The notes: a model not told the origin generated them from the letters alone. DNA of 43,115 nucleotides from an uncultured Rikenellaceae bacterium (GCA_964607105.1 CAZSJH010000002.1:1-43115); one strand, 5' to 3'. Numbered from the stretch's first letter, positions 13,812-40,318 are shown. A program made the numbers and translations.

Positions 13812-13812
13812 T

Positions 13813-16016: not shown

Positions 16017-16034
16017 GCGAATAAGATTAAGTAC

Positions 16035-17066: not shown

Positions 17067-17083
17067 TAAATATTTATTAAGTA

Positions 17084-18103
17084 ATGAAGCTGGCAGTACA
17101 CCATCGAGAAGGATCTTTCAGTAAATACTGGCTTGAATATTGTGAATCAAATAATATTCACTGTAAAAGAGTGGATTGTTACCGTAATGATATAATCGAT
17201 CAGCTTTCTGACTGTGATGCCTTGATGTGGCATCACAATCATATCAGCCCTAAAGATCCAATTTTTGCCAAGCAATTACTTTTCACACTTGAAACATCAG
17301 GAATGACAGTATGCCCTGATTTTAGATCAAACTGGCATTTTAATGACAAATTGGGTCAGAAATATTTACTTGAATCCATAAAGGCTCCTGCCGTTCCATC
17401 ACATGCTTTTTATTCAAAGAATGATGCCTTAGACTGGTTAAAAAAAGCCTCTTTACCTAAAGTATTTAAATTGCGCGGCGGTTCTGGTTCTGATAGTGTC
17501 AAATTGGTCAAGAACAGAAGAGAAGCTTTAAGATTAATAAATAGATCATTTGGCAGGGGTTTCAAACAATATAATGCTATAGGTAGTTTAAAAGAACGGC
17601 TGAGACAATTCAGGAATGGTAAGGTAGATCACACCGAGGTTATTAAAGGAATAATCAGGCTGTTTGCTCCACCTCCTTATTCACGGGTTCTCAAAAGGGA
17701 TCGTGGTTATGCTTATTTCCAAGACTTCATCCCGGCTAATACTCATGATATAAGAGTTACCTATGTGTTCAACAGGTGTTTTGCTCTAAGGCGAAAAGTA
17801 AGACCGGGAGATTTCAGGGCCTCAGGAAGTGGGATGATCGAATATGATATGTCAAAAATACCTCTGGAAGCATTAAAAATTGCTTTTAGTGTTGCAAATC
17901 AGTTGAAACTACAATGTGCAGCATTTGACTTTGTGTTGGATAAGGGCGAACCACTTATAGTTGAATTGAGTTATGGCTTTGGCTACGATACCGACCAGTT
18001 TAATCATGGATACTGGGATGAGCACCTTAATTATTACCCGGGTACTTTTAACCCTTACGGCTGGATGGTTGAGGGTGTTATAGAACAACATAATTCAAAG
18101 TGA
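17084..18103 (+). CDS. ATP-grasp domain protein (RimK/generic amidoligase-like), paralog 2
   Basis: Colinear with 16035..17066 (KVFKLRGGSGSDSVKLVKN, YAYFQDFIPANTHDIRVTYVFNRCFALRRKVRPGDFRASGSG, QCAAFDFVL). Confidence 0.65.
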   Translation: MKLAVHHREGSFSKYWLEYCESNNIHCKRVDCYRNDIIDQLSDCDALMWHHNHISPKDPIFAKQLLFTLETSGMTVCPDFRSNWHFNDKLGQKYLLESIKAPAVPSHAFYSKNDALDWLKKASLPKVFKLRGGSGSDSVKLVKNRREALRLINRSFGRGFKQYNAIGSLKERLRQFRNGKVDHTEVIKGIIRLFAPPPYSRVLKRDRGYAYFQDFIPANTHDIRVTYVFNRCFALRRKVRPGDFRASGSGMIEYDMSKIPLEALKIAFSVANQLKLQCAAFDFVLDKGEPLIVELSYGFGYDTDQFNHGYWDEHLNYYPGTFNPYGWMVEGVIEQHNSK

Positions 18104-20484: not shown

Positions 20485-22632
20485 ATGAAGCAAATAATTC
20501 AAAATCTTAAAACAGGAGAGACCTGTCTTGAAGAAATCCCGGTACCTGTGCCCGGTACAGGAGAAATATTGATACGAACAACTCATTCACTGGTTTCTCT
20601 GGGAACAGAAAAAATGCTGGTAGAATTCAGCAAGGCCAACCTGATTCAAAAAGCCAGACAACAGCCCGATAAAGTGAAACAGGTTCTGGATAAAATAAAA
20701 TCGGACGGCTTACTTCCCACAGTGGAAACAGTATTTAAAAGACTCGAGGAGCCTCTTCCGCTGGGATATTGCAATGCCGGTGTTGTTGTGGAAACAGGAA
20801 AGGGAGTAACAGGTTTTTCAGTAGGGGACAGGGTAGCTTCAAACGGGAAGCACGCTGAATACGTATGCGTACCACAGAATCTTGTCGCTAAAATACCTGA
20901 CGGGGTAAGCGATGAAGAAGCTGCATTTACAGTTATCGGTTCTATCAGCCTGCAAGGAATACGTTTATGCAAGCCGGAATTTGGTGAAACCATAGTAGTT
21001 ATAGGACTGGGCTTGCTGGGGCTCCTTGCTGTCCAGATGCTTTTAGCTAATGGCTGCCGGGTAATCGGAATAGATATTGATAAGCATAAATGCAACATAG
21101 CCCGTGAATGGGGTGCAATCACTTTTAATTCTGCAGCAGGTGATGATCCTGTGAAAGCAGTGTTGGAAGTTACCGAAGGAACAGGGGCTGATGGAGTAAT
21201 AATTACGGCTTCAGCCAGAACACATGATATAATTTCACAGGCAGCCCAGATCAGTAGAAAGCGCGGGCGCATAATACTGGTAGGAGTAATAGGACTTAAT
21301 ATAAACAGGGCAGAATTTTATGAAAAAGAACTGACTTTCCAGGTATCCTGTTCATATGGGCCGGGACGTTATGATGACAATTATGAGCAAAAAGGTATTG
21401 ACTATCCCCTTCCATTTGTACGATGGACCGAGAAACGAAATTTTGAAGCAATACTGCAGGCTATAGCTGAAAGCCATCTGAAGGTTGGAGAACTTATTAC
21501 TGAAAAAGTTAAACTGGCTGACTATAATAGTATTTACGGGGACATGGGGCAATCGGGTTCTATTGCTTCAATTATTGAATATCCCGGGAATAGTGAAGTC
21601 AAAGATAAGAATGGCAATACAGTAGTATTAAGGAATCAGTCATTCAATGGAGATAAAGCCGTAACAGGATTCATAGGAGCAGGGAATTTCACTAAAATGA
21701 CTATGCTCCCTGCATTGAAAGGTACGGGGGCTGAATTTAAATATATAGCATCATCCGGGGGTGTTTCAGGAACAACACTTGCCAGGAAGTTCGGATTCAG
21801 CTACAGCACTACCGATTATAAAGAGATTCTCAATGACAGGGAAGTTGATACAGTTTTTATCACTACACGTCATAACTCGCATGCAAAATTTGTAATTGAG
21901 TCACTTAGAGCCGGGAAAAATGTCTTTGTTGAAAAGCCCCTGGCAATAAATAATGAACAACTGGAAGAAATAATAAAGGTTTATAATGAATCTCTGGACA
22001 GTGACAATCCTTCCACTTTGAGCGTTGGGTTTAACAGGCGATTCTCTCCGCATACACAGGCTATAAAAAAGACACTGGGAGACAATCCAGGGGCAATTAA
22101 TATTGTTGCCACTATGAATGCGGGCTTTATTCCTTTAAAAGTTTGGGTCCATGATATGCAGGTGGGTGGTGGCCGTATTATTGGTGAAGCCTGTCATTAT
22201 ATGGATCTATGCACTTATCTGGCAGGTTCAGAGATTATATCCGTTTGCATGAACTCAATGGGTGTTGATACACAGGATAATACTGATAATGCAAGCATCC
22301 TCCTCAAATTTAAAAATGGGAGTAATGCAGCAATAAATTATTTTGCCAACGGGGCGAAGTCATACAGTAAAGAAAGGGTTGAAGTTTTTTCACAGGAGCG
22401 GGTGATGATATTAGACAACTTCCGTACCACGAAAGCTTATGGCGTAAAAGGATTTAAAAATCTTAAAACAAGAATAGATAAGGGGCACAGAGCCCAGTTC
22501 AGTGAGTATATACGAAGAATCAAGGAAGGTGGTGAACCTCTCATTAATTTCGGTGAGATAGTTAACGTAACAAAAGCTTCTTTTGCTTCTGTTAGAAGCC
22601 TTAAGGAAAAGCGCTGGATAGATGTTGATTAA
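20485..22632 (+). CDS. Bi-domain oxidoreductase: N-terminal MDR/zinc-alcohol-dehydrogenase-like domain fused to a C-terminal Gfo/Idh/MocA NAD-binding oxidoreductase domain
   Basis: The MDR-type region has GYCNAGVVVETGKGVTGFSVGDRV and the Rossmann motif VVIGLGLLGLLAVQ. The second Rossmann motif GFIGAGNFTKMTMLPAL, then VFITTRHNSHAKFVIESLRAGKNVFVEKPLA, is typical of Gfo/Idh/MocA. Confidence 0.8.
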   Translation: MKQIIQNLKTGETCLEEIPVPVPGTGEILIRTTHSLVSLGTEKMLVEFSKANLIQKARQQPDKVKQVLDKIKSDGLLPTVETVFKRLEEPLPLGYCNAGVVVETGKGVTGFSVGDRVASNGKHAEYVCVPQNLVAKIPDGVSDEEAAFTVIGSISLQGIRLCKPEFGETIVVIGLGLLGLLAVQMLLANGCRVIGIDIDKHKCNIAREWGAITFNSAAGDDPVKAVLEVTEGTGADGVIITASARTHDIISQAAQISRKRGRIILVGVIGLNINRAEFYEKELTFQVSCSYGPGRYDDNYEQKGIDYPLPFVRWTEKRNFEAILQAIAESHLKVGELITEKVKLADYNSIYGDMGQSGSIASIIEYPGNSEVKDKNGNTVVLRNQSFNGDKAVTGFIGAGNFTKMTMLPALKGTGAEFKYIASSGGVSGTTLARKFGFSYSTTDYKEILNDREVDTVFITTRHNSHAKFVIESLRAGKNVFVEKPLAINNEQLEEIIKVYNESLDSDNPSTLSVGFNRRFSPHTQAIKKTLGDNPGAINIVATMNAGFIPLKVWVHDMQVGGGRIIGEACHYMDLCTYLAGSEIISVCMNSMGVDTQDNTDNASILLKFKNGSNAAINYFANGAKSYSKERVEVFSQERVMILDNFRTTKAYGVKGFKNLKTRIDKGHRAQFSEYIRRIKEGGEPLINFGEIVNVTKASFASVRSLKEKRWIDVD

Positions 22633-22638
22633 TTTTGG

Positions 22639-24540
22639 GTGAGTCTTTTTTTTATGATCTTATCTAGGATCAAAAAAATATTCTGGTATATTGAACTGAT
22701 TCCAAAACTGGGAATCCGGAATGTATTTTATGTTTTATATTACAGAGTGCTTCTTAGATCTGGGATTCTTAAAAAGAAATACCCGTTCATTAAGCCTGAT
22801 GAAGACGGTGTTCTATATCAAAAGTGTCCTTCAATAAGAAATGACTATCCTGATGAATGGAAACAGAACCTCATTAGTCAGGCAGATAGTATAGTAAAAG
22901 GAGTAATTCCTTATTACTCATACTATTGGATAAAACAATCAGTACCCCCTAATTGGTTTCTTAATCCCTTCAACGGAAAAGAATGCATGGAGGTTGATAA
23001 ACACTGGACGAGGATAGCAGATTTCAATGATGCTATCGGAGATATAAAGAACATATGGGAAGCTTCCAGGTTTTCCTGGGTTGGTATCCTGGCGAGGGCA
23101 TATGCAGTAAGTGGGGATAGGAAATACCAAAATACATTGAATGAATGGTTAAATGACTGGTTGAAATCTAATCCTGTTAATCAAGGCCCCAATTGGAAAT
23201 GTGGACAGGAAGCATCTATAAGGGTCTTAAACCTGCTCAATGCAGCATATATTCTCAGACAGCATGACAGGCCTTCAAAATTACTTATTGATACGATCAT
23301 TCAGCATTTAGAAAGGATATCTTCAAATATCAGGTATGCTATATCTCAGCGTAATAATCATGCTACAAGTGAGGCAGCTGCCCTGTTCATTGGAGGTAGC
23401 TGGCTCGCGGCTATTGATAGCGCCAGTGAAAAAGAATATAAGATTTACGCTGATAAAGGGAGACAGGTACTTGAACGTTTGCTAAGAAGTCTTGTTTACG
23501 AAGATGGCAGCTTTGCTCAACATTCAGTAAATTATCATCGTTTATTCCTTGACACATTGACTTTTATTACCTTCTGGATATTTGTGCTTGACCTGAAGCC
23601 TCTGTCTAAAGGATTTAATGAGAATGCTAAAAAATCAGCTGCCTGGCTGTTATCTATTGTTGATGAATCAGGCATGTGTCCAAACCTTGGCTCAAATGAC
23701 GGCACCATGTTGCTTGGCAATCATTCCTGCGATTACCTTGATTACAGGCCTTCAATGCAGGCTGCTGCCGTTATGATAAATAAAAAGCTGGCTTTCGATT
23801 CAGGGCCATGGGATGAAACACTCTACTGGTTTGATATTAAAAAAGGTAATTACCCTTTTTCACCTGTTTTGAAAAAGTCAATCATTCATTCATCAGGTTA
23901 TGTGGTGATGAGTGATGAAGATTCATGGGCTCTACTTCGTTTTCCGTATTACAAATTTCGTCCATCACATAATGATATATTCCATTTTGATCTCTGGGCA
24001 AATGGAAGGAACCTTCTGTTTGATTCGGGTAGTTTTTCCTATAATCCTGAAAAAGACAGTCATGTGCCCGATTTAAAATCGGTTCACTCCCATAACACAC
24101 TTTCATTTGATAAATGTGAACAAATGCCACGCCTGGGACGGTTCCTGCTGGGTAAATGGCTTAAATATGAAGAAAGAGGAGATATTGAAAGAATGAATAA
24201 CGAGGGTAGTTTTTGGGAAGGCTCTTACAGGGTGACCTCAGGTAATGTTCACATTAGAAAAGTAAGCTGGCATGAAAATAATTGGGTTATTCATGATAGG
24301 TTTACAGGAAAGTCAGAGAAGGTTGAATTAGGGTTTAATTTCGACGATGATAATTATTCATTGGAGAATAATATATTACTCTTATCCTGGGGTAAGCTAA
24401 CAATTTCAGATAATGCCAGCGTAGAAATTATAAGACACTGGATTTCCAATTATTATATGCAATCAAGACAGGTCTATCGCCTGGTTGTTAATACTGAAAA
24501 CAATTCTGAGATCGTGACTTCAATAAATATCTTCAAATGA
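22639..24540 (+). CDS. Heparinase II/III-like / alginate-lyase-fold protein
   Basis: AISQRNNHATSEAAALFIGG (NNH motif of the alpha/alpha toroid lyase domain) and PSHNDIFHFDLWANGRNLLFDSGSFSY (heparinase II/III C-domain pattern). The alternative ATG start at 22654 follows a T8 run. Confidence 0.7.
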   Translation: MSLFFMILSRIKKIFWYIELIPKLGIRNVFYVLYYRVLLRSGILKKKYPFIKPDEDGVLYQKCPSIRNDYPDEWKQNLISQADSIVKGVIPYYSYYWIKQSVPPNWFLNPFNGKECMEVDKHWTRIADFNDAIGDIKNIWEASRFSWVGILARAYAVSGDRKYQNTLNEWLNDWLKSNPVNQGPNWKCGQEASIRVLNLLNAAYILRQHDRPSKLLIDTIIQHLERISSNIRYAISQRNNHATSEAAALFIGGSWLAAIDSASEKEYKIYADKGRQVLERLLRSLVYEDGSFAQHSVNYHRLFLDTLTFITFWIFVLDLKPLSKGFNENAKKSAAWLLSIVDESGMCPNLGSNDGTMLLGNHSCDYLDYRPSMQAAAVMINKKLAFDSGPWDETLYWFDIKKGNYPFSPVLKKSIIHSSGYVVMSDEDSWALLRFPYYKFRPSHNDIFHFDLWANGRNLLFDSGSFSYNPEKDSHVPDLKSVHSHNTLSFDKCEQMPRLGRFLLGKWLKYEERGDIERMNNEGSFWEGSYRVTSGNVHIRKVSWHENNWVIHDRFTGKSEKVELGFNFDDDNYSLENNILLLSWGKLTISDNASVEIIRHWISNYYMQSRQVYRLVVNTENNSEIVTSINIFK

Positions 24541-25772
24541 GAGTCCTGTATTTCCACCAGTATTTCTGTACTCCTGAAGGTAATTCAGGCATCAGGTCGT
24601 ACGAAATGGCCCGACACCTGGTGGAAAATGGCAATAATGTGACGATGGTTTTTGCAGAATCACCAAGATTGAAATCACCACTCAGCGGTAAAACATATAA
24701 GAAAGGTGTCAGAAAGGGAATTTACCAGGGAATTGATCTTATTGAGTTTGACCTGCATTACAGTAATAAGATGAGTATTTTCAGAAGGTCACTTGTGTTT
24801 CTGAGATTTTCTTTAAGGAGTATACGCCTCGTCTTCAAAGAAGATTTTGATATTCTTTTTGCCACTTCAACTCCTATCACTGCAGGAATACCCGGTATTG
24901 TAATGAAGGTGTTCGGAAAAAGAAAACCTTTCGTGTTTGAAGTAAGGGATCTCTGGCCAAAGCTACCACGCGAGATGGGAGTGATAAAAAACAAAGTAAC
25001 ACTCTGGGCTATGGGCTTGCTGGAATATCATTCTTATAATAAGGCAGATGCATGTGTGGCTTTGTCTCCGGGTATTGAAGAGGGTATAAAAAGGCGCTTA
25101 AAAAAGGATATACCTGTCTACCTTATTCCAAATGGCTGTGACCTTGACTTATTTAAGCCAGGGACTCATTCGAAGACAATTTTTCCCGGTTGCCAGGAGG
25201 ATAATCTAGTTGCTGTTTTCATAGGAGCCCATGGGATGGCAAATGGTTTAGACGCTGCACTGGATGCCGCAGCTGAGCTGAAGAAGAATAAATCGGGCAA
25301 AAATATAAAGATTGCTCTAATAGGTGACGGGAAATTAAAACCCCAACTAAAGCAAAGGGTAGATAAAGAAGGACTTGATAATGTTATACTGATGGACCCT
25401 GTACCTAAAAGACAATTATCAAAACATCTGTGGGCCGCAGATGTAGGCTTAATGTTACTGGCCAATGTACCAGCATTCTATTACGGAACCTCACCAAATA
25501 AATTCTTTGACTATATATCTTCCGGATTACCGGTATTAAATAATTATCCGGGCTGGCTTGCAGGAATGATAAAACAAAATAACCTGGGAGTTGTTGTTGA
25601 ACCTGATAACGCAAGGGAATTTTCGGATGCCCTCATCTATATGAATTTGAAGAAAGATAAGTTAATAATAATGAGCATTAATGCCAGGAAATTTGCTGAA
25701 CAATATTTTGACAGGAAAAAACTTGCATTGTTATTTGAAGAAGCTCTGAAAAATACTTATCAAAGGGATTAA
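24537..25772 (+). CDS. GT4-family glycosyltransferase, WbuB-like
   Basis: MRVLYFHQYFCTPEGNSGIRSYEMARHLVENGNNVTMV is the characteristic WbuB-type N-terminus. C-terminal KFFDYISSGLPVLNN is also present. ATGA overlap with the upstream gene. Confidence 0.8.
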   Translation: MRVLYFHQYFCTPEGNSGIRSYEMARHLVENGNNVTMVFAESPRLKSPLSGKTYKKGVRKGIYQGIDLIEFDLHYSNKMSIFRRSLVFLRFSLRSIRLVFKEDFDILFATSTPITAGIPGIVMKVFGKRKPFVFEVRDLWPKLPREMGVIKNKVTLWAMGLLEYHSYNKADACVALSPGIEEGIKRRLKKDIPVYLIPNGCDLDLFKPGTHSKTIFPGCQEDNLVAVFIGAHGMANGLDAALDAAAELKKNKSGKNIKIALIGDGKLKPQLKQRVDKEGLDNVILMDPVPKRQLSKHLWAADVGLMLLANVPAFYYGTSPNKFFDYISSGLPVLNNYPGWLAGMIKQNNLGVVVEPDNAREFSDALIYMNLKKDKLIIMSINARKFAEQYFDRKKLALLFEEALKNTYQRD

Positions 25773-25784: not shown

Positions 25785-26906
25785 ATGATCAATCAAATAA
25801 AACAGAATTTAAAAAATATCATTGGCTGGAAGACCCGGCGGAAAATAGTTATACTTTCTATTGATGACTATGGAAATGTAAGGACTGCCTCAAGAGAAGC
25901 CCTTCAAAACCTCAGGAAAGCCGGATTGAAACTGGGAAGGTTTGACGAGATTGATACACTTGAAACGAAACAGGATCTTGAGGGAATGCTGGAAACTCTG
26001 TCATCGGTAAAAGATATGAATGGGAATAATGCCGTTTTAACCCCTTTTGCAGTTCCTTGTAATATAGATTTTGAGAAAATGGCCGAGGATAATTTCAGCA
26101 ATTACCATTATGAGATGCTACCTCTTACTTTCAGTAAACTTGCCTTAAAAGACCCTGCGGCCTATGAGGGAGCATGGGATTTATGGGAAGAAGGGATTGC
26201 GAACAGGTTATTGGTACCACAATTTCACGGCAGGGAACATTTTAATCTAAAGGTTTTCGAGGAAAAATTGGAGAATAAAAATCCTGAATTGCTTGCCTCA
26301 TTGAAGAACTTTTCAAATCCGGGCCTTAATAACTTGGGCTCTAAGACAGTACAGTATACTGCAGCCTTCGAATTCTGGGATTTTAAAGAAAATCAGCGAT
26401 TCGAAGATATTATCGAGGATGGCTTGAATGCTTTTGAAAAAGTCTTCGGATACCGATCTGTACATTTTAATGCACCTTGCGGAAGTCAGCATCATATAAT
26501 TCATGAGGTCCTTAGAAAAAATGGAATAAAATATATAGATAATCCATTAATAAAGAAAGAACACCAGGGCTTTGGTGAATATAAGACTATTTTCAATTAT
26601 ACAGGGAAAAAGGATTCTACAGGGTTAATATATCAGGTCAGGAATATAGTATTCGAACCAACCCTTTATGGAGGCACTAACTGGGTTAATTACGCGATGC
26701 AACAAATTGCCTCGGCTTTTCGCTGGAACAAGCCTGCTATAATAAGCTCGCACCGTGCAAATTTTTGTGGACACATGGAACCGGAAAACAGGAAACAGGG
26801 ACTTGCCTACCTGAAAGAACTGTTACACAGAATAAGAGAAAAATGGCCAGAGGTAGAATTTATGTCTGCTGATCAATTGGGAGATCTTATAGCTACTGAA
26901 AAATGA
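25785..26906 (+). CDS. Divergent CE4/NodB-like (deacetylase-fold) protein, paralog B
   Basis: VILSIDDYGN, PQFHGREHFN and ISSHRANFCG. It is colinear with 12666..13811. Confidence 0.4.
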   Translation: MINQIKQNLKNIIGWKTRRKIVILSIDDYGNVRTASREALQNLRKAGLKLGRFDEIDTLETKQDLEGMLETLSSVKDMNGNNAVLTPFAVPCNIDFEKMAEDNFSNYHYEMLPLTFSKLALKDPAAYEGAWDLWEEGIANRLLVPQFHGREHFNLKVFEEKLENKNPELLASLKNFSNPGLNNLGSKTVQYTAAFEFWDFKENQRFEDIIEDGLNAFEKVFGYRSVHFNAPCGSQHHIIHEVLRKNGIKYIDNPLIKKEHQGFGEYKTIFNYTGKKDSTGLIYQVRNIVFEPTLYGGTNWVNYAMQQIASAFRWNKPAIISSHRANFCGHMEPENRKQGLAYLKELLHRIREKWPEVEFMSADQLGDLIATEK

Positions 26907-27907
26907 GTTTAAAAAAGTTAGTATACCTCGGCTACTACCTGAAAAACATTGATGCAAAGAAGCTATCAAGTTTTCTCAAATATGCTAAAATGCGAACTGG
27001 TAAATCCAGGCTCACCCTGTTTTTAAGTGCAATTAAAAGTGTTTTTGTGTATAATATTTCAATCCTTGAGTACTTTCAATTCCGGTTTTTTGAGATAAAG
27101 AGGGAAGAACATTTTAATTGGGCCGGTACCGGGTTCATGTTTGAGTACCAGAAGAAAATGAATCCTTTACGAGTTAGAAGTGTGCTGGAGAATAAGATTT
27201 TATTCAATAAACATTTTAATGCTTATTTCGGCAGGGGGTTTGCTACCATTGAGGACATTAAAAGGAAGCCGGAAATTGCAGAAAAACTGATTAAAAATCC
27301 TTCAGGGAAAGTGGTCCTTAAGAATTCTCTTGGCCAGGCCGGGAAAGAGATAAAAGTACTTGACAATACAGGTATGACACCTTCTCAACTAATTAATATA
27401 ATGAGATCAGGTAAATTTGATCTTGTTGAAGAATATATTGTTCAACACCCTGAGATGATGAAATTATCATCAGCCGGCTTAAATACAATCAGAATAGTAA
27501 CGCAGGAAGTTAATGGAAATATTGAGATAGTTGCTGCAAGACTGAGGATTACCATAAATTCTGTTGTAGACAATCTTGCAGCAGGCAATGCTGCAGCACC
27601 TGTTGATCTTGAATCAGGAAAAATAAGCGGTTCTGCTGTATTCAGTGACATAACCAAACCTGATATTAGTGTTCATCCCGTGTCAGGTGCAGAGATACCT
27701 GGTTTTCAGATCCCTCTCTGGTCTGAAATAATCGAGATGATAGAAAAAGCTGCATTAATGGTTCCTGAAAACAGGTCTGTAGGCTGGGATATAGCTGTAA
27801 CTCAAGAAGGTCCTTTACTGGTGGAAGGAAACCACAACTGGTGTAAGTTATTGTGGCAACTGCCTGTCAAACAGGGGTTGAAGGGACAATTACTAAAATA
27901 CCTCTGA
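26903..27907 (+). CDS. ATP-grasp amidoligase (ATPgrasp_ST-like), third copy
   Basis: GKVVLKNSLGQAGKEIKVL, LNTIRIVTQEVNGNIEIVAARLRITINSVVDNLAAGNAAAPVDLESGKISG, and GWDIAVTQEGPLLVEGNHNW. ATGA overlap with the upstream gene. Confidence 0.65.
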   Translation: MSLKKLVYLGYYLKNIDAKKLSSFLKYAKMRTGKSRLTLFLSAIKSVFVYNISILEYFQFRFFEIKREEHFNWAGTGFMFEYQKKMNPLRVRSVLENKILFNKHFNAYFGRGFATIEDIKRKPEIAEKLIKNPSGKVVLKNSLGQAGKEIKVLDNTGMTPSQLINIMRSGKFDLVEEYIVQHPEMMKLSSAGLNTIRIVTQEVNGNIEIVAARLRITINSVVDNLAAGNAAAPVDLESGKISGSAVFSDITKPDISVHPVSGAEIPGFQIPLWSEIIEMIEKAALMVPENRSVGWDIAVTQEGPLLVEGNHNWCKLLWQLPVKQGLKGQLLKYL

Positions 27908-28506
27908 TGGAAAGAATCCTGATCTTCATTAAACATCATCTCGCTTTCCTCTGGAGAATTATTGAATGGGGAAACGGACTTATGTTTTCTTTGTTCTTTG
28001 GTTCCAAACTGGATAGAGTATTGTCTGTTGTGTTTAGAGAATTCTCGAAACCTCCTTTTCTATACAGAGAGCTAACCCAGGCTGATGCTGATATGTTATA
28101 TGAGCTGATTAATTCACAGGAAGGCGCTGATCTTGAGTATTTTCAACCACACGGATTTGACAAAGGTTCAATAAAAAAGCAATTTAGGAATCGATCTTTC
28201 CTGATGATGGGTGTGTTTGACGAAAATAGGATGATTGGATATTTCTTCCTTCGTTTCTTTGCAAACAGGAAAAGCTTCGTAGGCAGGTTAATTGATAAGG
28301 GATACAGGGGTAAAGGAATTGGCCTGATCATGAATGATATTATGTATGAAACCTCATGGGGAATGGGATTCCGATGCCTTTCGACAATTTCAAGGAGTAA
28401 CACTGCAGTTATGAAAGCTCATTCTAAAAATCAAAGTATGAAAGTACTGAAAGAACTACAGAATGATTACCTGCTGGTTGAATTTATAAGTAAGAACACT
28501 GATTGA
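27907..28506 (+). CDS. GNAT-family N-acetyltransferase
   Basis: GRLIDKGYRGKGIGLIMNDIM (GNAT motif A, R/Q-x-x-G-x-G). I prefer the ATG at 27907 (TGATG overlap) over the track start at 27853, which would overlap the upstream gene by 55 nt. Confidence 0.65.
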   Translation: MERILIFIKHHLAFLWRIIEWGNGLMFSLFFGSKLDRVLSVVFREFSKPPFLYRELTQADADMLYELINSQEGADLEYFQPHGFDKGSIKKQFRNRSFLMMGVFDENRMIGYFFLRFFANRKSFVGRLIDKGYRGKGIGLIMNDIMYETSWGMGFRCLSTISRSNTAVMKAHSKNQSMKVLKELQNDYLLVEFISKNTD

Positions 28507-28569: not shown

Positions 28570-29745
28570 ATGATTGGTGTAATCATAACAGGAATACTTG
28601 TCCTGTCAATTTTAATATATCTGGTAATAGATTATTATGGCCCTGAATATATTAATCTAAAGAAGGATAATCTATTTAACAAAGAATGTTTGAGGGCTAA
28701 AGACCTGATTGTACAGGAATTTGACAGAGATGGTAATTTATGGGCTTCACGGGGTATGATTTTATATTGCCTGAAAAAAGATGATAATAAATTTATTAAG
28801 ATAGCTCATGTGCCAACGGGTTTTTCATTTTACTGGCTCAGCAACTTCAGTCTGCTCAGGCGTTACATTAATAAACCAGAGTGTATTGAAGCTACAATTA
28901 CGGGAGAAGGTCATATTTGTGCACTCTCAGCGGGTTTTATTTGGCATAGTAAACTTGGAGGAAGGTTTGAGAGAGCAATGAAATTGCCTCATTACGGGAT
29001 GAGTGTTGGAAGGGGTATTTTCAGTAATGGCTTGCTTGCAGATGGAGATAGTACTGTTTATCTGGGCGAATATTTTCGCAATACAGACAGAATCAGCGTT
29101 TTCATCTATGTAAGTGAGGATAATGGAAAAACCTGGGAGGTAGCATATGAGTTTAAACCTGGTGTTATTCGTCATATTCATGCTCTCCAGAAGGATCCAT
29201 ATACAGGTAAATTGTGGTTCTGCTCAGGTGATTATGATAATGAGTCTATGATAGGCTGGTCTGGTGATGGATTCAGGATCATAAATATAATAGGGAAGGG
29301 GAGCCAGAGCTGGAGAACTGCACAGCTGGTATTTACGGAGGAAGCTGTTTACTGGGGAGGAGATACCGGTTCAATTGATCTGGCAGGAATATACCGGTGG
29401 GATAAGGCTACAATGCAACTATCGAGGATAAGAGAGATTGATGGCGCAATATTATATGGAACAAGACTTTCGGGTGGGTTAATATTATTCAGTACAGACC
29501 GGGAAGGTTTCCCCAATGAGAATGACCATAAAACCAGATTATTGGTCGTTGATCGCAATAATGATGTTTCGGAGATAGATGTAGGAACATGGAAGCATTG
29601 GGAAAAAGGACTGCGTTATAGTTTTGCCATGCTACGTACGCCACGAAACCAGGGGAACAGGTATTTAGCTGTTTCTGTTATAAATCAAAAAGAAATTCCA
29701 ATAGGAGAACTGTTATTAATAAATGAAGAAAATTTAATTCCATAG
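28570..29745 (+). CDS. N-terminally membrane-anchored protein with a BNR/Asp-box motif (possible sialidase-like beta-propeller fold); function unknown
   Basis: Single N-terminal TM helix (MIGVIITGILVLSILIYLVIDYY). Perfect Asp-box SEDNGKTW (S-x-D-x-G-x-T-W). Beta-strand-rich composition. Confidence 0.45.
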   Translation: MIGVIITGILVLSILIYLVIDYYGPEYINLKKDNLFNKECLRAKDLIVQEFDRDGNLWASRGMILYCLKKDDNKFIKIAHVPTGFSFYWLSNFSLLRRYINKPECIEATITGEGHICALSAGFIWHSKLGGRFERAMKLPHYGMSVGRGIFSNGLLADGDSTVYLGEYFRNTDRISVFIYVSEDNGKTWEVAYEFKPGVIRHIHALQKDPYTGKLWFCSGDYDNESMIGWSGDGFRIINIIGKGSQSWRTAQLVFTEEAVYWGGDTGSIDLAGIYRWDKATMQLSRIREIDGAILYGTRLSGGLILFSTDREGFPNENDHKTRLLVVDRNNDVSEIDVGTWKHWEKGLRYSFAMLRTPRNQGNRYLAVSVINQKEIPIGELLLINEENLIP

Positions 29746-29842: not shown

Positions 29843-30718
29843 ATGAATAATATATACGCTACCAGCTGGCATGAAGCAAAGCCGCCTCCTTCAAGGATTA
29901 GTAAGAAATCAAGATATGTGCTAAGGAATATGTTGCTGTCAGTTTACTCTCGAGTAAACAAGAAACAGGATGATAAGTACCTAAGGTGTTTGTATTGTCA
30001 CTATGTGTTTGACGATCAGCGAAAAGAATTTGAGAATCTGATAACAAAGATTAAGAGGATTGGTGAATTTGTTGATACAGCAACATGTTTGGACATGATA
30101 CAGGGAAAAAGAGATATAGATAGAAGATATTTTCACCTGTCTTTTGATGATGGTTTTAGGAATCATTATACCAATGCTGTTCCATTATTGAAAAAACATA
30201 AGGTACCGGCAATATTTTTTGTCCCTTCCTCCCTGGTAGGATCCAGCTATGAAGAAACTAAACAATATTGCACGGTAACCAATCAATACAGGGCTGTAAT
30301 TGAAATGTTAAGATGGGATGACCTGAGGGATATGCTTTCGATAGGTTTTGAGATAGGTTCACATACTAAGACTCATGCCCGATTTTCTGAACTATCTGAA
30401 AACAAGTCCATGCTAAAAGATGAAATATTTGGCTCAAAAAAGGAATTAGAGGATAACCTGAATTATAAATGTGATTATATATCGTGGCCCTATGGAAGTC
30501 TGGCTGATGTAGATATTAAATCTCTTGATAATGTAAAGATGGCAGGTTATAAAGCCTGTTTCGGGGCATACAGGGGTACTCCTCTTCCAAGGGTAACTGA
30601 TATTTTTAGAATACCCAGGCACCAGGTTGAAGTGCAATGGCCCTTATCTCACATATTATATTTTACCAGGGGTAATATGGAGAAGAGAAGAGTAAGAAAT
30701 AAAATAACCTATGTTTAA
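29843..30718 (+). CDS. Polysaccharide deacetylase (CE4, NodB homology domain)
   Basis: HLSFDDGFRNHY (motif 1, DD), EIGSHTKTHARF (motif 2, H-x-x-x-H), ISWPYG (motif 3). Confidence 0.8.
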   Translation: MNNIYATSWHEAKPPPSRISKKSRYVLRNMLLSVYSRVNKKQDDKYLRCLYCHYVFDDQRKEFENLITKIKRIGEFVDTATCLDMIQGKRDIDRRYFHLSFDDGFRNHYTNAVPLLKKHKVPAIFFVPSSLVGSSYEETKQYCTVTNQYRAVIEMLRWDDLRDMLSIGFEIGSHTKTHARFSELSENKSMLKDEIFGSKKELEDNLNYKCDYISWPYGSLADVDIKSLDNVKMAGYKACFGAYRGTPLPRVTDIFRIPRHQVEVQWPLSHILYFTRGNMEKRRVRNKITYV

Positions 30719-31295
30719 AAGGGTATTTGATATAAGTGCTTCTTTATTTGGTCTGGTTCTGATAAGCCCGGTACTCTTGATTTTAGTATTAATTATTAAA
30801 TTATATATGCCCGGGCCGGTGTTATTTACCCAGAAACGAGCCGGCAGGCATGGCAAACCATTTACAATTTATAAGTTCAGAACTATGATTGTGAATCATG
30901 CCGGGAGCACTGTTTCTGTTAAAGGAGAGACCCGTATAACTACCCTGGGAGCAAGACTTCGTAAGTATAAACTCGATGAACTGCCGGAGCTCTGGAATAT
31001 TCTTATTGGCGATATGAGTTTTGTTGGTCCCAGACCCGATGTGCCTGAATATGTGGAGAAGCTCAAGGGCATAGAAAAACTGATCCTTGAACTTCGCCCG
31101 GGTTTGACCGGGCCGGCTACATTGAAATATTCAAATGAAGAGGAACTTCTTGCTTCCGTTCCTGACCCCCGGAGATTTAATGATGAAGTGCTATGGCCTG
31201 ACAAGGTAAGGATTAACCTGGAGTATTATCAGAACAGGAGTTTCTTTGGGGATATACTTATTATTTTTAAAACAGTTCTTGGGATAACACGGTGA
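30711..31295 (+). CDS. Small PglC/WcfS-like initiating phosphoglycosyl transferase (bacterial sugar transferase family)
   Basis: KRVFDISASLFGLVLISPVLLILVLIIKL re-entrant helix, PVLFTQKRAGRHGKPFTIYKFRTM, DELPELWNILIGDMSFVGPRP. 8-nt overlap with the upstream gene. Confidence 0.9.
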   Translation: MFKRVFDISASLFGLVLISPVLLILVLIIKLYMPGPVLFTQKRAGRHGKPFTIYKFRTMIVNHAGSTVSVKGETRITTLGARLRKYKLDELPELWNILIGDMSFVGPRPDVPEYVEKLKGIEKLILELRPGLTGPATLKYSNEEELLASVPDPRRFNDEVLWPDKVRINLEYYQNRSFFGDILIIFKTVLGITR

Positions 31296-32115: not shown

Positions 32116-33264
32116 ATGACTAAAAAGAACAAACGAATCTTCCTTTCTTCACCTCACATGTCAGGTAATGAGATGAAATACATCCAGAAAGCCTTTAACC
32201 AAAACTGGATAGCCCCTCTGGGACCAAATGTGGATGGTTTTGAGAGATCACTTGCCAGTTATTGTGGCGTTAATCATGCTGCAGTATTGAGCTCGGGATC
32301 AGCTGCTATCCATCTCGCTTTGATATTACTTGGAGTTGGGAATGAAGATGAAGTAATTGCTTCTTCATTCACCTTTTCAGCTACTGTTAACCCTATAGTT
32401 TACCTTGGTGCTACCCCAGTACTGGTAGACAGCGAGCCCGGAACCTGGAACATGGACACTGGAATGCTTGAAGCTGCAATAAGAGACCGTTTAACCAAAA
32501 AAGGAAAGAAGCCCAAAGCAATTATCATGGTACATCTATACGGAATGCCGGCCAAAATGGATGAGGTTATGGCCATAGCCGATAAATATGAAATACCTGT
32601 AATTGAGGATGCAGCAGAAGCTCTGGGAAGCAGATATAATAATGAACCTGTTGGTTCATTTGGTAAAATGGCTGTGCTCTCATTCAATGGCAATAAAATA
32701 ATAACAACTTCAGGGGGAGGAGCCCTTATCTCTGATGACAGAGAATTAATAGAGAAGGCCAGGTTCCTTGCAACCCAGGCACGTGATAAAGCTCCTCACT
32801 ATCAGCATAGCCAGATTGGTTATAATTACAGGATGAGTAATGTCCTGGCTGGTATCGGAAGGGGACAGATGGAGGTAATAGATCAGAGGGTCAGGAAGAG
32901 GAGGGATAATTATAAGTTTTATTACGAAAACTTAAAGGATTATCCGGGGATCAAATTCCTGGTAGAGCCTGGAAATAAGTATTTTTCAAATTACTGGCTT
33001 ACTACCATTTTAATTGATCCAAAGGAGGCTGGAACATCACGCGAAGAAATACAGGCCGAACTTGAGAAAAATAATATTGAATCAAGGCCTTTGTGGAAGC
33101 CGATGCACCTGCAGCCTGTCTTTGAATCATGCCCGGCTTACCTGAACGGCATCTCTGAAGATTTGTTCATTCATGGGCTTTGCCTGCCCTCAGGTACCAA
33201 TATGTCAGATGAAGATCTGAATCATGTGTTGAGCGTGATCGAGAATAAACTTCTTGAAAAATAA
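32116..33264 (+). CDS. DegT/DnrJ/EryC1/StrS-family PLP-dependent sugar aminotransferase (PglE/WcfR-like)
   Basis: IFLSSPHMSGNEMKYIQKAF, VIEDAAEALGS, the SFNGNKIITTSGGGAL (PLP Lys) region, and YNYRMSNVLAGIGRGQ. Confidence 0.9.
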   Translation: MTKKNKRIFLSSPHMSGNEMKYIQKAFNQNWIAPLGPNVDGFERSLASYCGVNHAAVLSSGSAAIHLALILLGVGNEDEVIASSFTFSATVNPIVYLGATPVLVDSEPGTWNMDTGMLEAAIRDRLTKKGKKPKAIIMVHLYGMPAKMDEVMAIADKYEIPVIEDAAEALGSRYNNEPVGSFGKMAVLSFNGNKIITTSGGGALISDDRELIEKARFLATQARDKAPHYQHSQIGYNYRMSNVLAGIGRGQMEVIDQRVRKRRDNYKFYYENLKDYPGIKFLVEPGNKYFSNYWLTTILIDPKEAGTSREEIQAELEKNNIESRPLWKPMHLQPVFESCPAYLNGISEDLFIHGLCLPSGTNMSDEDLNHVLSVIENKLLEK

Positions 33265-33351: not shown

Positions 33352-33894
33352 ATGTCGATAAGAAGATTAATAAAACGTATCAGGAGATTTTACGCGAAAA
33401 ATGCCGGCTCAGATGCAAAAATAAAATATTACAGGAAACAGGGCATGAAGATAGGAGAAAACTGTCGTTTTGAAACAATGTCATTTTCGACTGAACCATA
33501 CCTGATTGAGATTGGGAATAAAGTAGCTATTGCAATTGGTACATTATTTATTACACATGATGCAGGTATCCGGTGCTTTAGGGATGAATTTCCCGCTGAA
33601 GATATTTTTGGTAAAATAATCATTGGTGATAATGTGTTTATAGGTTCAAACTGTACTATTTTACCTAATACTACTATAGGTAATAATTGTATAGTTGGTG
33701 CAGGAAGCGTAGTGCGGGGGAGGTTCCCTGATAATTCAGTGATAGCTGGTAATCCTGCAAAAGCAATAACTAACATGAATGTCCAGAAATTAATATACAG
33801 GCAGAATCCTGGCCGACTGAAAACGGGTTATATGTCCGATATGGATAAAAAACCTTTGATAATGAAACATTTTAAAATAGATAATATCAAATAA
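33352..33894 (+). CDS. Left-handed beta-helix (hexapeptide-repeat) acetyltransferase
   Basis: IGDNVFIGSNCTILPNTTIGNNCIVGAGSVVRGRFPDNSVIAGNPAK hexapeptide repeats. Confidence 0.8.
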   Translation: MSIRRLIKRIRRFYAKNAGSDAKIKYYRKQGMKIGENCRFETMSFSTEPYLIEIGNKVAIAIGTLFITHDAGIRCFRDEFPAEDIFGKIIIGDNVFIGSNCTILPNTTIGNNCIVGAGSVVRGRFPDNSVIAGNPAKAITNMNVQKLIYRQNPGRLKTGYMSDMDKKPLIMKHFKIDNIK

Positions 33895-34636: not shown

Positions 34637-37126
34637 TTATTGCTTTATAAATCTCTTGGTCGCGATAATTTCTTTTCTTAAAAGTGTGAAGATATAAATA
34701 CCGGGTTTAAGATAAGACAAATCAAATTGTTTTGTTGTTTCCCCTTCTAACATGTGACCATTAAAGATGGAAGCCCCATTTGAGTTTGTAATTATTATAC
34801 TGCTGGGTTCAGCCTCGAAAGGATCATTATATGATATTGTGAAAATACCGTTATTTGGATTAGGGTAGAGTTTGAATGCATTAAGCATATTATAGTCACT
34901 GGCTACAGATATGTTAACTGTTTCTGATGTACTGACACTATTTCGGTCATCTATAGCTACTACCCTTATTGAATAATTACCCTGTCTTACATCTTTCCAG
35001 ATATAAAAAAAAGGTGGGACCATACTCTCTCCGAGTTTAATGTCTTCATTGTAAAATTCAACTTTACTTATTTTTCCATCTTCATCATCGGCTTCAGCTT
35101 CAATTAAGATTGTGGCGGGAGGTATGAATGAGCTGTTATTGTCAGGCGACAGGATTGTGATGAAAGGCAGCTGATTTATATTCACATAAACCTGCACTGA
35201 TGAAGAAGTTGTTACAGCACCGTCATTATCAGTTGCAACTGCATGTATTGAATGAGTGCCCACCCCAACATTCTTCCATACAAAGTTATAAGGAGTTGAA
35301 GTTCTTTCTCCGATCTTGGTGCCGCCATTAAAGAATTCTACTTTTCTTATTGTTCCGTCTGAGTCACTGGCTGATGTTTCGATAGTGACTGTGGCAGGGG
35401 CTATATATGAACTATTTTTTGTAGGTGAAGAGATAGAGACAACAGGTGGTGAATTGGTTTGTGGATTAGTAGATGTACTATTAACAACAACATTCACAGC
35501 CCGGGATGTAGAGGAAACATTACTATTATCAACAGCTACTGCAGTCAATGTGTAGCTGCCAGCTTCCACATTTTGCCATGTATAGGCATAGGGAGGTGAG
35601 CTAATCTGTGCAAGCCTTGTACTCCCTCTGTAGAATTCCACCCTGCTTATCGTACCGTCCGGGTCACTTGCCGTTGCCTGAATTGTAATTGTAGCAGGTT
35701 CTGAATAGGAGCTGTTGTTTACAGGATAAGTAATAGAGACAGCCGGTGGCTGATTCGCAGGTACGACATTACCACTCTTATACTCTGAATAACCTAGATC
35801 AGGAGCTGAACCATAATAGGGTATTCCAACATTAGTACCGGCATCTATTAATGAGCTTTCTGAGGACAGTTTTAAAAAATTAAGATTGGGGAGGGATCCA
35901 TCTGCCTGCCGGGGTCCACTTAAACCTGTTGAATCAAGACTGACGAAGTCCCTGTCAGTTATATTAACACCAGGAGGATTATTCCAGCTATTGTATATGT
36001 TAGTGCATACAGCGCCTGTACCAAGTTTAATCGGACCGCTTTCATTATCATAAGAAATATTGTTTATTAATGATCTGGTCAATTCCCTTTCGCTTGAACT
36101 GATTGTATTGTAGATATAGAAGCCATAAACAGGATTTGGATATTCATCATAATAACCGTTATGATAAGCTGTATTATTATACAGATGCATTTCATATGCA
36201 ATATAGCCCTGGTCATTGCTGGTAAATCCAGAAGCCCTGTTAAAAGCTGCTATACAGTTATGATAGTATCTTTTTAATGTTACCGGTGACTCATTTATCC
36301 ATCCCATCTTGAAGCCATGTCCATCACCCTCAACCCGGCCGTTATTGAATGACCAGCAATTATCATACTCGGTATAGCCAATAGATCCCGACGAAAAACC
36401 TTGATCTCCACACTTCCATGCTCTGCAACCTGTGTAATATACACTGTACTCACTATCAGTCCAGTTAAAATCTAGAAATCCTGACCCATCATTACCGGGT
36501 TGGGGATTATCTTCAGGTACTGAGGTCATGCAGTCACAATTATTCCATGAATCACAATTTATAAAATATACCTCATCACATACTGAAGTTTTGAAACCAA
36601 TACCACCAGTGTTATAAACAGCACAGTTTTCTATAACTACATTCTTTGAATTGGAGAGCCGGAATGCTCCATCAACTTCAGACGTGCCACACTTTTGCCA
36701 TACATTTCTAATTACCAGCCCTTTAAAGTGGACATAATTAACGTCATCAGCCCTGATTGCATAATTATCATTATAGGTATATCCGGCACAGGGATCAACT
36801 GCATCACAATCTAATATTGGTGTCTCACCAGGATAGGCCCAAAAACGTACTGTGTCTCCTCTTACTCCATCAGCAGTTACAGAATAACCTCTCCCAGGTG
36901 TATATGGCCAGTTAAGATCATTTATTGTCATTAGGTAAACGCCACCCCTGAAATACACAGTATCCCCTGCAGAAATATCAGCAGTGTTAAAAGCATGTCC
37001 CCATGTTGCCCATGGGTCATTTATACTGCCGGATCCATTATCATTACCATTGGGAGATACATAATAAGTCTTGGATGAAGCTATTGAGAAAATAGATAAA
37101 AAAAACAGTAAGCAGATTCCTCTCAT
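34637..37126 (-). CDS. Secreted right-handed parallel beta-helix (pectate-lyase-fold) protein with three tandem Ig-like domains and a T9SS C-terminal sorting domain
   Basis: Signal peptide MRGICLLFFLSIFSIASS. YYVSPNGNDNGSGSINDPWAT is the beta-helix N-cap motif. The middle is Cys/Asn-rich with beta-helix repeats. Three repeats of about 89 aa occupy aa 460-741. The C-terminal LYPNPNNGIFTISY...GIYIFTL...KRFIKQ is typical of the T9SS CTD. Confidence 0.85.
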   Translation of the reverse strand: MRGICLLFFLSIFSIASSKTYYVSPNGNDNGSGSINDPWATWGHAFNTADISAGDTVYFRGGVYLMTINDLNWPYTPGRGYSVTADGVRGDTVRFWAYPGETPILDCDAVDPCAGYTYNDNYAIRADDVNYVHFKGLVIRNVWQKCGTSEVDGAFRLSNSKNVVIENCAVYNTGGIGFKTSVCDEVYFINCDSWNNCDCMTSVPEDNPQPGNDGSGFLDFNWTDSEYSVYYTGCRAWKCGDQGFSSGSIGYTEYDNCWSFNNGRVEGDGHGFKMGWINESPVTLKRYYHNCIAAFNRASGFTSNDQGYIAYEMHLYNNTAYHNGYYDEYPNPVYGFYIYNTISSSERELTRSLINNISYDNESGPIKLGTGAVCTNIYNSWNNPPGVNITDRDFVSLDSTGLSGPRQADGSLPNLNFLKLSSESSLIDAGTNVGIPYYGSAPDLGYSEYKSGNVVPANQPPAVSITYPVNNSSYSEPATITIQATASDPDGTISRVEFYRGSTRLAQISSPPYAYTWQNVEAGSYTLTAVAVDNSNVSSTSRAVNVVVNSTSTNPQTNSPPVVSISSPTKNSSYIAPATVTIETSASDSDGTIRKVEFFNGGTKIGERTSTPYNFVWKNVGVGTHSIHAVATDNDGAVTTSSSVQVYVNINQLPFITILSPDNNSSFIPPATILIEAEADDEDGKISKVEFYNEDIKLGESMVPPFFYIWKDVRQGNYSIRVVAIDDRNSVSTSETVNISVASDYNMLNAFKLYPNPNNGIFTISYNDPFEAEPSSIIITNSNGASIFNGHMLEGETTKQFDLSYLKPGIYIFTLLRKEIIATKRFIKQ
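34904..35749 (-). repeat. Three tandem in-frame Ig-like domain repeats (about 267 nt each: 35483..35749, 35183..35449, 34904..35170) inside the T9SS protein gene
   Basis: Repeat pattern: P.(V/I)SI(T/S/L)(Y/S)P...NSS(Y/F).(E/A/P)PAT(I/V).I.(A/T)(T/S/E)A.D.DG.I.(R/K)VEF(Y/F)..(G/D)..(L/I)..(I/R/S)...P(Y/F).(Y/F).W(Q/K)(N/D)V..G.(Y/H)(T/S)(L/I).(A/V)VA.D. Confidence 0.85.
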
Positions 37127-39063: not shown

Positions 39064-39094
39064 AATGTTTATTTTTCTTATATTATGTCTTAAT

Positions 39095-39180
39095 GAGGCT
39101 CAAAGCCTTTCGTCTTTAATGGTGTTTTTATTTATAATGTTACTGTAAAAACTTCTTTTCAGGCGCAAAGCCTTGCGCCT
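39095..39180. repeat. GC-rich palindromic element: one perfect copy AGGCGCAAAGCCTTGCGCCT (39161..39180) and one degenerate copy GAGGCTCAAAGCCTTTCGTCT (39095..39115)
   Basis: 8-bp stem AGGCGCAA/TTGCGCCT with a 4-nt loop. The identical 20-mer recurs at 40319..40338. Confidence 0.8.
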
Positions 39181-39193
39181 CTACAATTACCTC

Positions 39194-39235: not shown

Positions 39236-39279
39236 TACTTTATTATATCTTCGTCCGCCGACTTTGATCTGATAAAATC

Positions 39280-40269: not shown

Positions 40270-40318
40270 GATTTCATATCTTTCAAATTCAGCATAAATT
40301 TCAAATTTTATTTTTGTG

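Follow-up and report, generated by a model that had tools for sequence, protein, structure and literature searches.

The window analysed here, i.e. a stretch of 43,115 nucleotides from an uncultured Rikenellaceae bacterium (GCA_964607105.1 CAZSJH010000002.1:1-43115), encodes at positions 25785-28506 a trio made of a hydrolase resembling the carbohydrate esterase family 4 (CE4) superfamily, an ATPgrasp_ST ligase and a GNAT-type acetyltransferase, and contains at 12666-18103 another module headed by a paralogous hydrolase. These CE4-like proteins are tentatively proposed, with a probability of roughly 0.4, to be cytoplasmic metal-dependent de-N-acylases functionally tied to the ligase encoded directly downstream; at similar odds, and judging from their modelled fold, they would represent a new branch, so far without a name, within the deacetylase/GH57 barrel superfamily. 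The predicted fold, the conserved residues, the tight gene linkage, the replacement of the ligase by another type and the pairing of the ligase with a GNAT all fit the scheme of deacetylation, aminoacylation and N-acetylation put forward in the initial annotation, which is chemically sound, plausible and partly supported.

The trio lies on the plus strand and opens with the hydrolase CE4L_2 (25785-26906, 373 amino acids), whose assignment is based on its open reading frame, AlphaFold2 modelling followed by Foldseek comparison, invariant residues and synteny. It is followed by AGST_3 (26903-27907, 334 amino acids), an ATPgrasp_ST (PF14397) carboxylate-amine ligase scoring 151.6 bits, and by the GNAT-type acetyltransferase (27907-28506, 199 amino acids). 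The translational coupling initially annotated can be read in the sequence at both junctions, as an ATGA overlap between CE4L_2 and AGST_3 (26903-26906) and as a TGATG overlap between AGST_3 and the GNAT (27905-27909), the latter therefore placing the GNAT start at ATG 27907 and not at the upstream GTG 27853. The Pfam GNAT matches of this protein are weak (17.5-19.6 bits, under the cut-offs); the acetyl-CoA motif A was sought as R/Q-x-x-G-x-G/A, and the motif YRGKGIG is present. Orthologs from three related loci, which are designated hereafter by L numbers, exceed the Acetyltransf_1 cut-off of 20.7 (L006, 23.7; L013, 28.4; L052, 23.5).

By sequence, the label "CE4-like" is weak, and it stands on the predicted fold and on the motifs. 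No Pfam or NCBIfam model matched the CE4-like proteins above threshold: CE4L_2 reaches 22.3 bits with Polysacc_deac_1 (PF01522), whose gathering score is 23.1, and matches the C-terminal half of this model only, CE4L_1, the hydrolase of the other module, gave no Polysacc_deac_1 match in the Pfam scan, and weak matches were found in 16 of 25 family members (best 1.4e-5). Besides, sequence searches of the PDB returned no meaningful relatives of the CE4-like protein or of its family profile, nor of the ATP-grasp or the GNAT. The AlphaFold2 model of CE4L_2 (predicted local distance difference test score, pLDDT, 83; predicted TM-score 0.84) is a deformed (beta/alpha) barrel of the glycoside hydrolase/deacetylase (deacetylase/GH57) superfamily, and Foldseek matched it with a probability of 1.0 to the PgdA HP0310 of H. 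pylori (E 9e-6), a deacetylase of M. smegmatis, ArnD (5.5e-5), PuuE and GH57 enzymes, with TM-scores of 0.44-0.58 on the target.

In 32 sequences covering both CE4-like subfamilies, D27, D28, H148, E151, H152, E259, R286, E291, H323 and R324 are invariant, the SSHR residues being as unchanging in the two subfamilies as the DD and HxxxH motifs. Among these positions, D27, D28, H148, H152, R286 and H323 are candidate metal and catalytic residues. In the CE4L_2 model, DD and H323 are located at the ends of strand 1 and of a late strand, respectively, and HxxxH comes just after a short strand, in the same way as motifs 1, 2 and 5 are found at strand ends in canonical CE4 enzymes; the spacing of D27, D28, H148, H152 and H323 is CE4-like as well. 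The CE4-like proteins are thus predicted to have in common with the canonical CE4/NodB-homology group (PgdA, PgaB, ArnD, PuuE) the barrel, the DD and HxxxH motifs and the late-strand His, but they differ from it by their size of about 375 amino acids with large insertions (such as a beta-hairpin at 250-290), by their scores under the Pfam threshold, by the absence of an NCBIfam model and by an altered motif 3 (FNPPGG/IPPNY instead of RPPY), where FNPPGG (228-233) is placed at the RPPYG position of CE4 by the coordinates of the partial Pfam match. As to the deacetylase reading of the initial annotation, modelling predicts a deacetylase-type barrel in which the candidate Asp-His-His and catalytic residues are invariant; no family model matched above threshold and, as reported below, a profile comparison with a canonical CE4 found nothing.

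Neither a signal peptide nor a transmembrane segment was found in the CE4L_2 sequence, and the enzyme is therefore probably cytoplasmic, its substrates being sugars linked to a nucleotide or a lipid. The family is large, with 2,484 and 6,719 matches to the two subfamily queries in a database clustered at 90%, and forms at 50% identity 1,882 clusters, all of about 375 amino acids and single-domain. No fusion of a CE4-like protein with a ligase was seen among the top 150 representatives, all of them single-domain proteins of this same length, and a plasmid search with the CE4-like protein gave no match.

The gene neighbourhood of the CE4-like family was examined by scanning one genome per GTDB species, which yielded 366 relatives; the best 80 loci were analysed, and the 73 of them with at least 1.2 kb of downstream sequence are informative. 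The loci span the Bacteroidales, Marinilabiliaceae, Flavobacteriaceae, Chitinophagaceae, Sphingobacteriaceae, Cyclobacteriaceae, Balneolaceae, Ignavibacteriales and others. A carboxylate-activating ligase accompanies the CE4-like gene in 71 of the 73 loci. It is an ATPgrasp_ST protein in 57, the gene being adjacent in 45, most commonly with a 4-nucleotide overlap, and further downstream in 12, usually behind a small Bac_transf gene. In a further 12 loci, a PaaK-like adenylate-forming ligase of about 435 amino acids is encoded directly 3' of the hydrolase, and in 2 it is encoded further downstream; in the last 2, no ligase was seen in the approximately 1.25 kb of downstream sequence at hand. 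The synteny of the two families thus holds across genomes when viewed from the hydrolase. The PaaK-like protein carries the sequence TSGSTGTPF, scores 67 bits on the NCBIfam model of the DVU_1553-family AMP ligase and matches PaaK in the PDB at 1e-6. Since an unrelated carboxylate activator takes the same position while the hydrolase is kept, this exchange argues, from gene content, that the hydrolase can be partnered by any N-acylating ligase, and among the computational arguments for a partner of this type it is the strongest. In L052 and L023, a GNAT gene follows the PaaK-like ligase gene. A single locus, L030 from an uncultured Aliifodinibius (7980-11685), encodes both a PaaK-like ligase and an ATPgrasp_ST protein behind the CE4-like gene, and two acylations may take place there.

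On the ligase side, the window holds three PF14397 copies (151.6, 89.9 and 122.2 bits), all above the gathering score of 31.4. The AlphaFold2 model of AGST_3 (pLDDT 87.6) combines an N-terminal domain of about 110 amino acids, helical and specific to the family, with a standard ATP-grasp core, and its nearest Foldseek relatives are amino-acid and peptide ligases, namely BacD/YwfE, Ddl/VanA-type enzymes, LysX, PsnB and RimK (E of about 1e-5 to 1e-6 for BacD, Ddl, LysX and RimK). K140, D296 and the E-x-N motif E308-x-N310 are invariant and, by its sequence, AGST_3 appears catalytically intact. The name of the ATPgrasp_ST family comes from its genomic association with Bac_transf sugar transferases. 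In most related loci, a Bac_transf gene is indeed located directly 5' or 3' of the ATP-grasp gene, the distance being 2.8 kb, on the downstream side, in the window. A literature search on PF14397/ATPgrasp_ST, and on pglB2 together with ATP-grasp, returned nothing.

The pair formed by a CE4-like gene and an ATPgrasp_ST gene had been annotated as occurring twice in the locus, and this is confirmed, the paralogous hydrolases being each followed by a PF14397 gene. CE4L_1 (12666-13811, plus strand) has 381 amino acids when translated from TTG 12666, a long start that is backed by homologs of 370-385 amino acids, a shorter call dropping the DDWG motif. It aligns end to end with CE4L_2 (35% identity, E 3e-75), and both copies contain DD-x-G (SIDDYG and ESDDWG) and H-x-x-x-H (FHGREH and FHAREH). 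However, CE4L_1 is followed not by one but by four ATP-grasp genes on the same strand: AGST_1 (13813-14940, 89.9 bits), which starts 1 nucleotide past the CE4L_1 stop; AGST_2 (14937-16016, 122.2 bits), the third ATPgrasp_ST ligase of the window, likely starting at ATG 14937 in an ATGA overlap with the AGST_1 stop; and the RimK-like ligases RimKL_1 (16035-17066; Pfam RimK 23.7 bits, TIGR00768 5.9e-10) and RimKL_2 (17084-18103; Pfam RimK 22.5 bits), orthologs of the last being encoded directly 3' of CE4L_1 in L081, L086 and L087. The ATP-grasps encoded at 26903-27907 and 13813-14940 are distant paralogs (30% identity over 159 amino acids, E 5e-12). A recent duplication of the module is rejected because the paralogs share just 30-35% identity. 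The annotated duplication is instead an old paralogy, and the first copy is not a simple pair.

From the observed paralogy, fold class, conserved residues, gene linkage and exchange of ligase type, we infer a hydrolase reaction, an acceptor amine, an acid substrate and an order of steps as follows. The hydrolase would de-N-acetylate one of the amino sugars of the repeat unit while this sugar, an N-acetylhexosamine (HexNAc) or one of the bacillosamine type, is linked to a nucleotide or to undecaprenyl diphosphate. The ATPgrasp_ST enzyme would then make the acyl-phosphate of an amino acid, or of another small acid, and pass the acyl group to the freed sugar amine, after which the GNAT would cap the new alpha-amine with acetyl-CoA. 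The resulting N-(N-acetyl-aminoacyl) amino sugar would finally enter the Wzx/Wzy pathway. As for the module at 12666-18103, its hydrolase would unmask an amine in the same manner, and its four ATP-grasps would then add several residues.

With regard to this last module, 1 to 6 ATP-grasp genes follow CE4L_1 in all 7 further loci of its subfamily (L081-L087), besides the window, and the context is in each of the 7 GT4–EpsG–CE4L_1–ATP-grasp(s). The shortest array consists of a single RimK-like gene (L081, L086, L087), L084 has four ATPgrasp_ST and two RimK-like genes, and L082, from Rhodohalobacter barkolensis, combines a CapA-like gene, two RimK-like genes, CE4L_1 and four ATPgrasp_ST genes. In terms of gene content, the array thus looks as if it were modular, with a varying number of ligases. 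A rather speculative extension is that such arrays build peptides, the CE4-like enzyme acting as a gate and the ATP-grasps adding, residue by residue, short non-ribosomal peptide stems on de-N-acetylated amino sugars. Five ATP-grasps are encoded in the window, and AsnB-like amidotransferases and a CapA-like protein accompany the arrays. If this were true, bacteria of the Fibrobacteres–Chlorobi–Bacteroidetes (FCB) group would produce by the Wzx/Wzy route a peptide-decorated surface glycan, in partial parallel to the stem peptide of peptidoglycan, and the length of the array would set that of the peptide.

Several observations weigh against the amine-unmasking scheme. At the level of the hydrolase, hhalign found nothing when the CE4-like family profile was compared with the canonical CE4 deacetylase of the window (29843-30718), so that the equivalence of the motifs with those of CE4 rests on fold and topology, and the likeness of the CE4L_2 model to canonical CE4 is of the superfamily or fold level (9-14% identity, TM-scores of about 0.45-0.58). 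At the level of the third step, a GNAT gene is present in just 11 of the 73 loci centred on the CE4-like gene. In addition, the window and most of its relatives encode PglF-/PglE-like enzymes that would provide a free 4-amine, and the characterised ATP-grasps Pyl and PglB2, which are found beside small phosphoglycosyl transferases (PGTs), acylate exactly that 4-amine (PMC11626204, PMC11130364). Finally, when five AGST_3 orthologs on long contigs (L088-L092) were considered, the CE4-like gene adjoined the ligase gene in L088 only, and the four others (L089-L092) had no adjoining CE4-like gene. These orthologs would therefore use an acceptor that does not need such a deacetylase, unless the gene is located elsewhere in the genome. 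The ligases without a CE4-like neighbour are 58-63% identical to the linked ones, as close as the latter are among themselves and within the usual range of the family (median 55%), and they do not form a separate clade.

The dependence is accordingly one-sided in these samples, the hydrolase being nearly always with a ligase and the ligase often without the hydrolase, with the restriction that the ligase side comprises five loci and that the hydrolase may sit elsewhere in the genome. More precisely, L090 and L091 have the ATP-grasp–GNAT pair and no adjoining CE4-like gene, while in L089 and L092 the order is PGT–ATPgrasp_ST–PglD-like–PGT–DegT–PglF. The overlap of ligase and GNAT codons recurs in the window, L088, L090 and L091. 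Distant PF14397 members encoded on plasmids have no deacetylase neighbour and occur in unrelated contexts. As to the other genes of these loci, L088 contains a second, unrelated pairing (1760-3858), in which a canonical deacetylase (Polysacc_deac_1/DUF3473) goes with an ATP-grasp_3 protein, and in L091 a Dlt-like set (an AMP-binding enzyme, a GNAT, a 79-amino-acid carrier-like protein and an MBOAT protein; 6675-10532) is encoded directly 3' of the ATP-grasp–GNAT pair. As a whole, the deacetylate–ligate–acetylate scheme is thus supported by the barrel fold, the invariant residues, the near-universal synteny with a ligase, the resemblance of the ligase model to amino-acid ligases and the recurrent ATP-grasp–GNAT overlap, and weakened by the ligase units devoid of a CE4-like gene (4 out of 5), by the PglF/PglE-type route to a 4-amino sugar in the locus and by the scarcity of the GNAT.

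The same observations bring forward a serious alternative, somewhat less probable, in which the ATPgrasp_ST enzyme would acylate the 4-amine of a uridine diphosphate (UDP)-2-acetamido-4-amino-2,4,6-trideoxyhexose made by PglF- and PglE-like enzymes, the GNAT would cap the added amino acid and the small PGT would move the sugar-phosphate to undecaprenyl phosphate. The hydrolase would then be an accessory tailoring enzyme acting, before or after, on another position of the same sugar; it may for example take off the acetyl group of N-2, so that a free amine is left or a second acylation becomes possible. The model for the ligation would be Pyl from the UDP-Yelosamine pathway of Bacillus cereus, an ATP-grasp enzyme by which the amine of a UDP-amino sugar is coupled to a small carboxylic acid (PMC11626204), and PglB2 of Neisseria meningitidis, a fusion of an ATP-grasp domain with a PGT that N-acylates the 4-amine of a bacillosamine precursor to give GATDH, a 4-glyceramido sugar (PMC11130364, PMC6959607). 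The Pyl gene is accompanied by those of a 4,6-dehydratase and an aminotransferase and is located directly upstream of that of a small monotopic PGT (PMC11626204; Hwang et al. 2014 via PMC8987622), which is also the context of AGST_3 orthologs, and ATPgrasp_ST and Bac_transf genes that adjoin each other look like PglB2 divided into two genes.

Besides the one-sided dependence (71/73 from the hydrolase, ligase(–GNAT)–transferase units occurring without it), this 4-amine route is favoured by the near-constant adjacency of the ATP-grasp to a Bac_transf gene, by the gene order of L089 and L092 and by the presence of PglF-like, DegT-like and PglD-like genes in the window, the DegT/PglE-like aminotransferase being, from its sequence, a candidate source of a 4-amino sugar and thereby of a rival acceptor amine. 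Nevertheless, it leaves unexplained why the hydrolase gene so steadily precedes the ligase gene directly, in translational coupling with it, as well as why CE4L_1 is at the head of ATP-grasp arrays that adjoin the gene of the polymerase and are distant from those of the Pgl type; moreover, the PglD-like acetyltransferase of the same locus would compete for the 4-amine. The likeness of Pyl and PglB2 to the ligases of the window is one of gene context (PGT, 4,6-dehydratase, aminotransferase), and, unlike the trio, Pyl uses 2-oxoglutarate as acid and has neither a CE4-like hydrolase nor a GNAT, while PglB2 has no deacetylase or GNAT partner.

A different and improbable view is that the ATP-grasps join amino acids to the carboxylates of uronic acids or peptides, as Campylobacter Cj1438 amidoligase, TupA and RimK amidate carboxylates with amino acids, the CE4-like protein being an independent deacetylase or esterase co-transcribed because it belongs to the same pathway. 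The RimK-like ligases of the first module belong to the carboxylate-extending class, the three AsnB-like genes of the window suggest carboxylate chemistry, and a distant PF14397 member from an exopolysaccharide cluster on a Lactococcus garvieae plasmid is accompanied by a nucleotide-sugar dehydrogenase and not by a deacetylase. However, the window has no gene for a UDP-sugar 6-dehydrogenase, the capping GNAT would have no substrate, and both the near-obligate adjacency of hydrolase and ligase and the replacement by a PaaK-like enzyme would be unexplained. Lastly, it is very unlikely that the hydrolase opposes or edits the ligase, either as an amidase removing the acyl or aminoacyl group (compare glutathionylspermidine synthetase/amidase) or as a PdaA-like lactam former, since a futile pair with the hydrolase gene first would be unusual in a biosynthetic operon and no regulatory element or other evidence speaks for it, even though a one-way dependence of the hydrolase on the ligase would be expected of an enzyme whose substrate is the ligase product, and CE4-superfamily members such as ArnD and PuuE hydrolyse varied amides.

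The logic of the amine-unmasking scheme is known from other pathways. In mycothiol biosynthesis, the deacetylase MshB is followed by the ATP-dependent Cys ligase MshC and by the GNAT MshD, and BshB is followed by BshC in that of bacillithiol; in these two pathways, as with NodB/NodA and LpxC/LpxD, an amino sugar is de-N-acetylated and then re-acylated. By analogy, the trio would follow the three-step logic of mycothiol, i.e. deacetylation, ATP-dependent ligation of an amino acid and N-acetylation by a GNAT. The families are unrelated (LmbE-type MshB and Cys-tRNA-synthetase-like MshC versus CE4-like and ATP-grasp proteins), so that the resemblance is not one of homology, and the product is a soluble thiol in mycothiol and bacillithiol whereas it would be a polysaccharide unit here. 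NodB/NodA and LpxC/LpxD de-N-acetylate GlcNAc and N-acylate the freed amine, as may be the case for the trio; NodB is a bona fide CE4 enzyme while LpxC is not, and the re-acylation by NodA and LpxD relies on acyl-acyl carrier protein (ACP) transferases instead of the ATP-dependent ligases of the trio. The O-polysaccharide of Flavobacterium psychrophilum was considered as a user of the module and rejected, an ACP and a PglD-like acyltransferase being used there.

This logic is not new, but there appears to be no earlier description of the enzyme family or of the systematic way in which it is coupled, in the polysaccharide loci of the FCB group, to ATP-grasp or PaaK-like ligases: the literature search found no paper on the CE4-like family or on its coupling to ligases, and neither Pfam nor NCBIfam holds a model of the family. 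The amino sugars of O-antigens and capsules commonly bear amide-linked amino acids and N-acyl groups, which shape antigenicity, and few of the enzymes installing them are known. The CE4-like family suggests that amino sugars receive amino acids or other acids by a route that is as yet uncharacterised, and the three-enzyme system is open to direct test, the cultured carriers including Labilibacter sediminis, Fodinibius roseus, Rhodohalobacter barkolensis and several Flavobacterium species. Among them, Labilibacter sediminis CG51 (L006) has the complete gene order of the window type, and L051 comes from Flavobacterium macrobrachii. If confirmed, such substituents would become predictable from genomes and the enzymes could serve in glycan tailoring.

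The window as a whole is a low-GC (approximately 37%) polysaccharide biosynthesis locus of the Bacteroidota type, whose genes are almost all on the plus strand between 5 and 34633. They encode successively a PglF/WbpM-like dehydratase, two Wzx flippases with AsnB-like and CapA-like proteins, glycosyltransferases and an EpsG/Wzy-like polymerase; then the first CE4-like/ATP-grasp module, further glycosyltransferases, a bi-domain oxidoreductase, a heparinase II/III-like protein and a GT4; and finally the trio, a canonical CE4 deacetylase, a small PGT, a DegT-type aminotransferase and a PglD-like acetyltransferase. The PglF/WbpM-like UDP-GlcNAc 4,6-dehydratase (5-1711, plus strand), cut at its 5' end by the window, matches Polysacc_synt_2 (383 bits), PglD_N and CoA_binding_3. 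The small monotopic PGT (Bac_transf, 30711-31295, plus strand; PF02397, 194 bits) is encoded directly 3' of the ATP-grasp or GNAT gene in relatives. The DegT/PglE-like aminotransferase (32116-33264, plus strand), recurrent in related loci, is assigned from its open reading frame and from PF01041 in the orthologs of L089 and L092, and the left-handed beta-helix, PglD-like acetyltransferase (33352-33894, plus strand) from its open reading frame and from orthologs that repeatedly adjoin the aminotransferase. The canonical CE4 gene (29843-30718; Polysacc_deac_1, 75 bits), which brings the deacetylase-type genes of the window to three with CE4L_1 and CE4L_2, shares 8 nucleotides with the start of the PGT gene, and none of the 80 related loci showed an ortholog.

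Between the trio and this gene, 28570-29745 encodes a 391-amino-acid protein with a hydrophobic N-terminal helix and faint BNR/Asp-box matches only, to which no family is assigned and whose orthologs adjoin the PGT in L006, L013, L017 and L090. Upstream of the trio, 20485-25772 encodes the bi-domain oxidoreductase (zinc-ADH and GFO/IDH/MocA, 715 amino acids), the heparinase II/III-like protein and the GT4; these three genes are kept directly 5' of the CE4-like gene in loci of the window type (L001-L003, L006, L007, L012, L013, L017 and L026), and a role in sugar epimerisation or oxidation is possible. At the beginning of the locus, the Wzx paralogs (1785-3242 and 5742-7217) are 67% identical and the AsnB-like paralogs (3334-5019 and 8407-10089) 46% identical, the latter both without the N-terminal catalytic Cys of glutamine amidotransferases, and a CapA-like PGA_cap protein is encoded at 7241-8398 between the Wzx and AsnB-like copies. 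The Wzx–AsnB segment looks duplicated, which suggests more amide chemistry in the locus. A convergent operon on the minus strand (37609-42688) encodes an 86-amino-acid acyl-carrier-like protein with a DSMGF motif, a Cys2-bearing asparagine synthase-like amidotransferase, an NAD-synthase-like PP-loop enzyme and an AMP-binding ligase, and could supply an acyl or amidated substituent. Finally, 34637-37126, also on the minus strand, encodes a secreted protein of 829 amino acids, whose N-terminal region is beta-helix-like and is accompanied by three Ig-like repeats; its C-terminal segment, read by eye, resembles the sorting domain of type IX secretion and fits a Bacteroidota origin.

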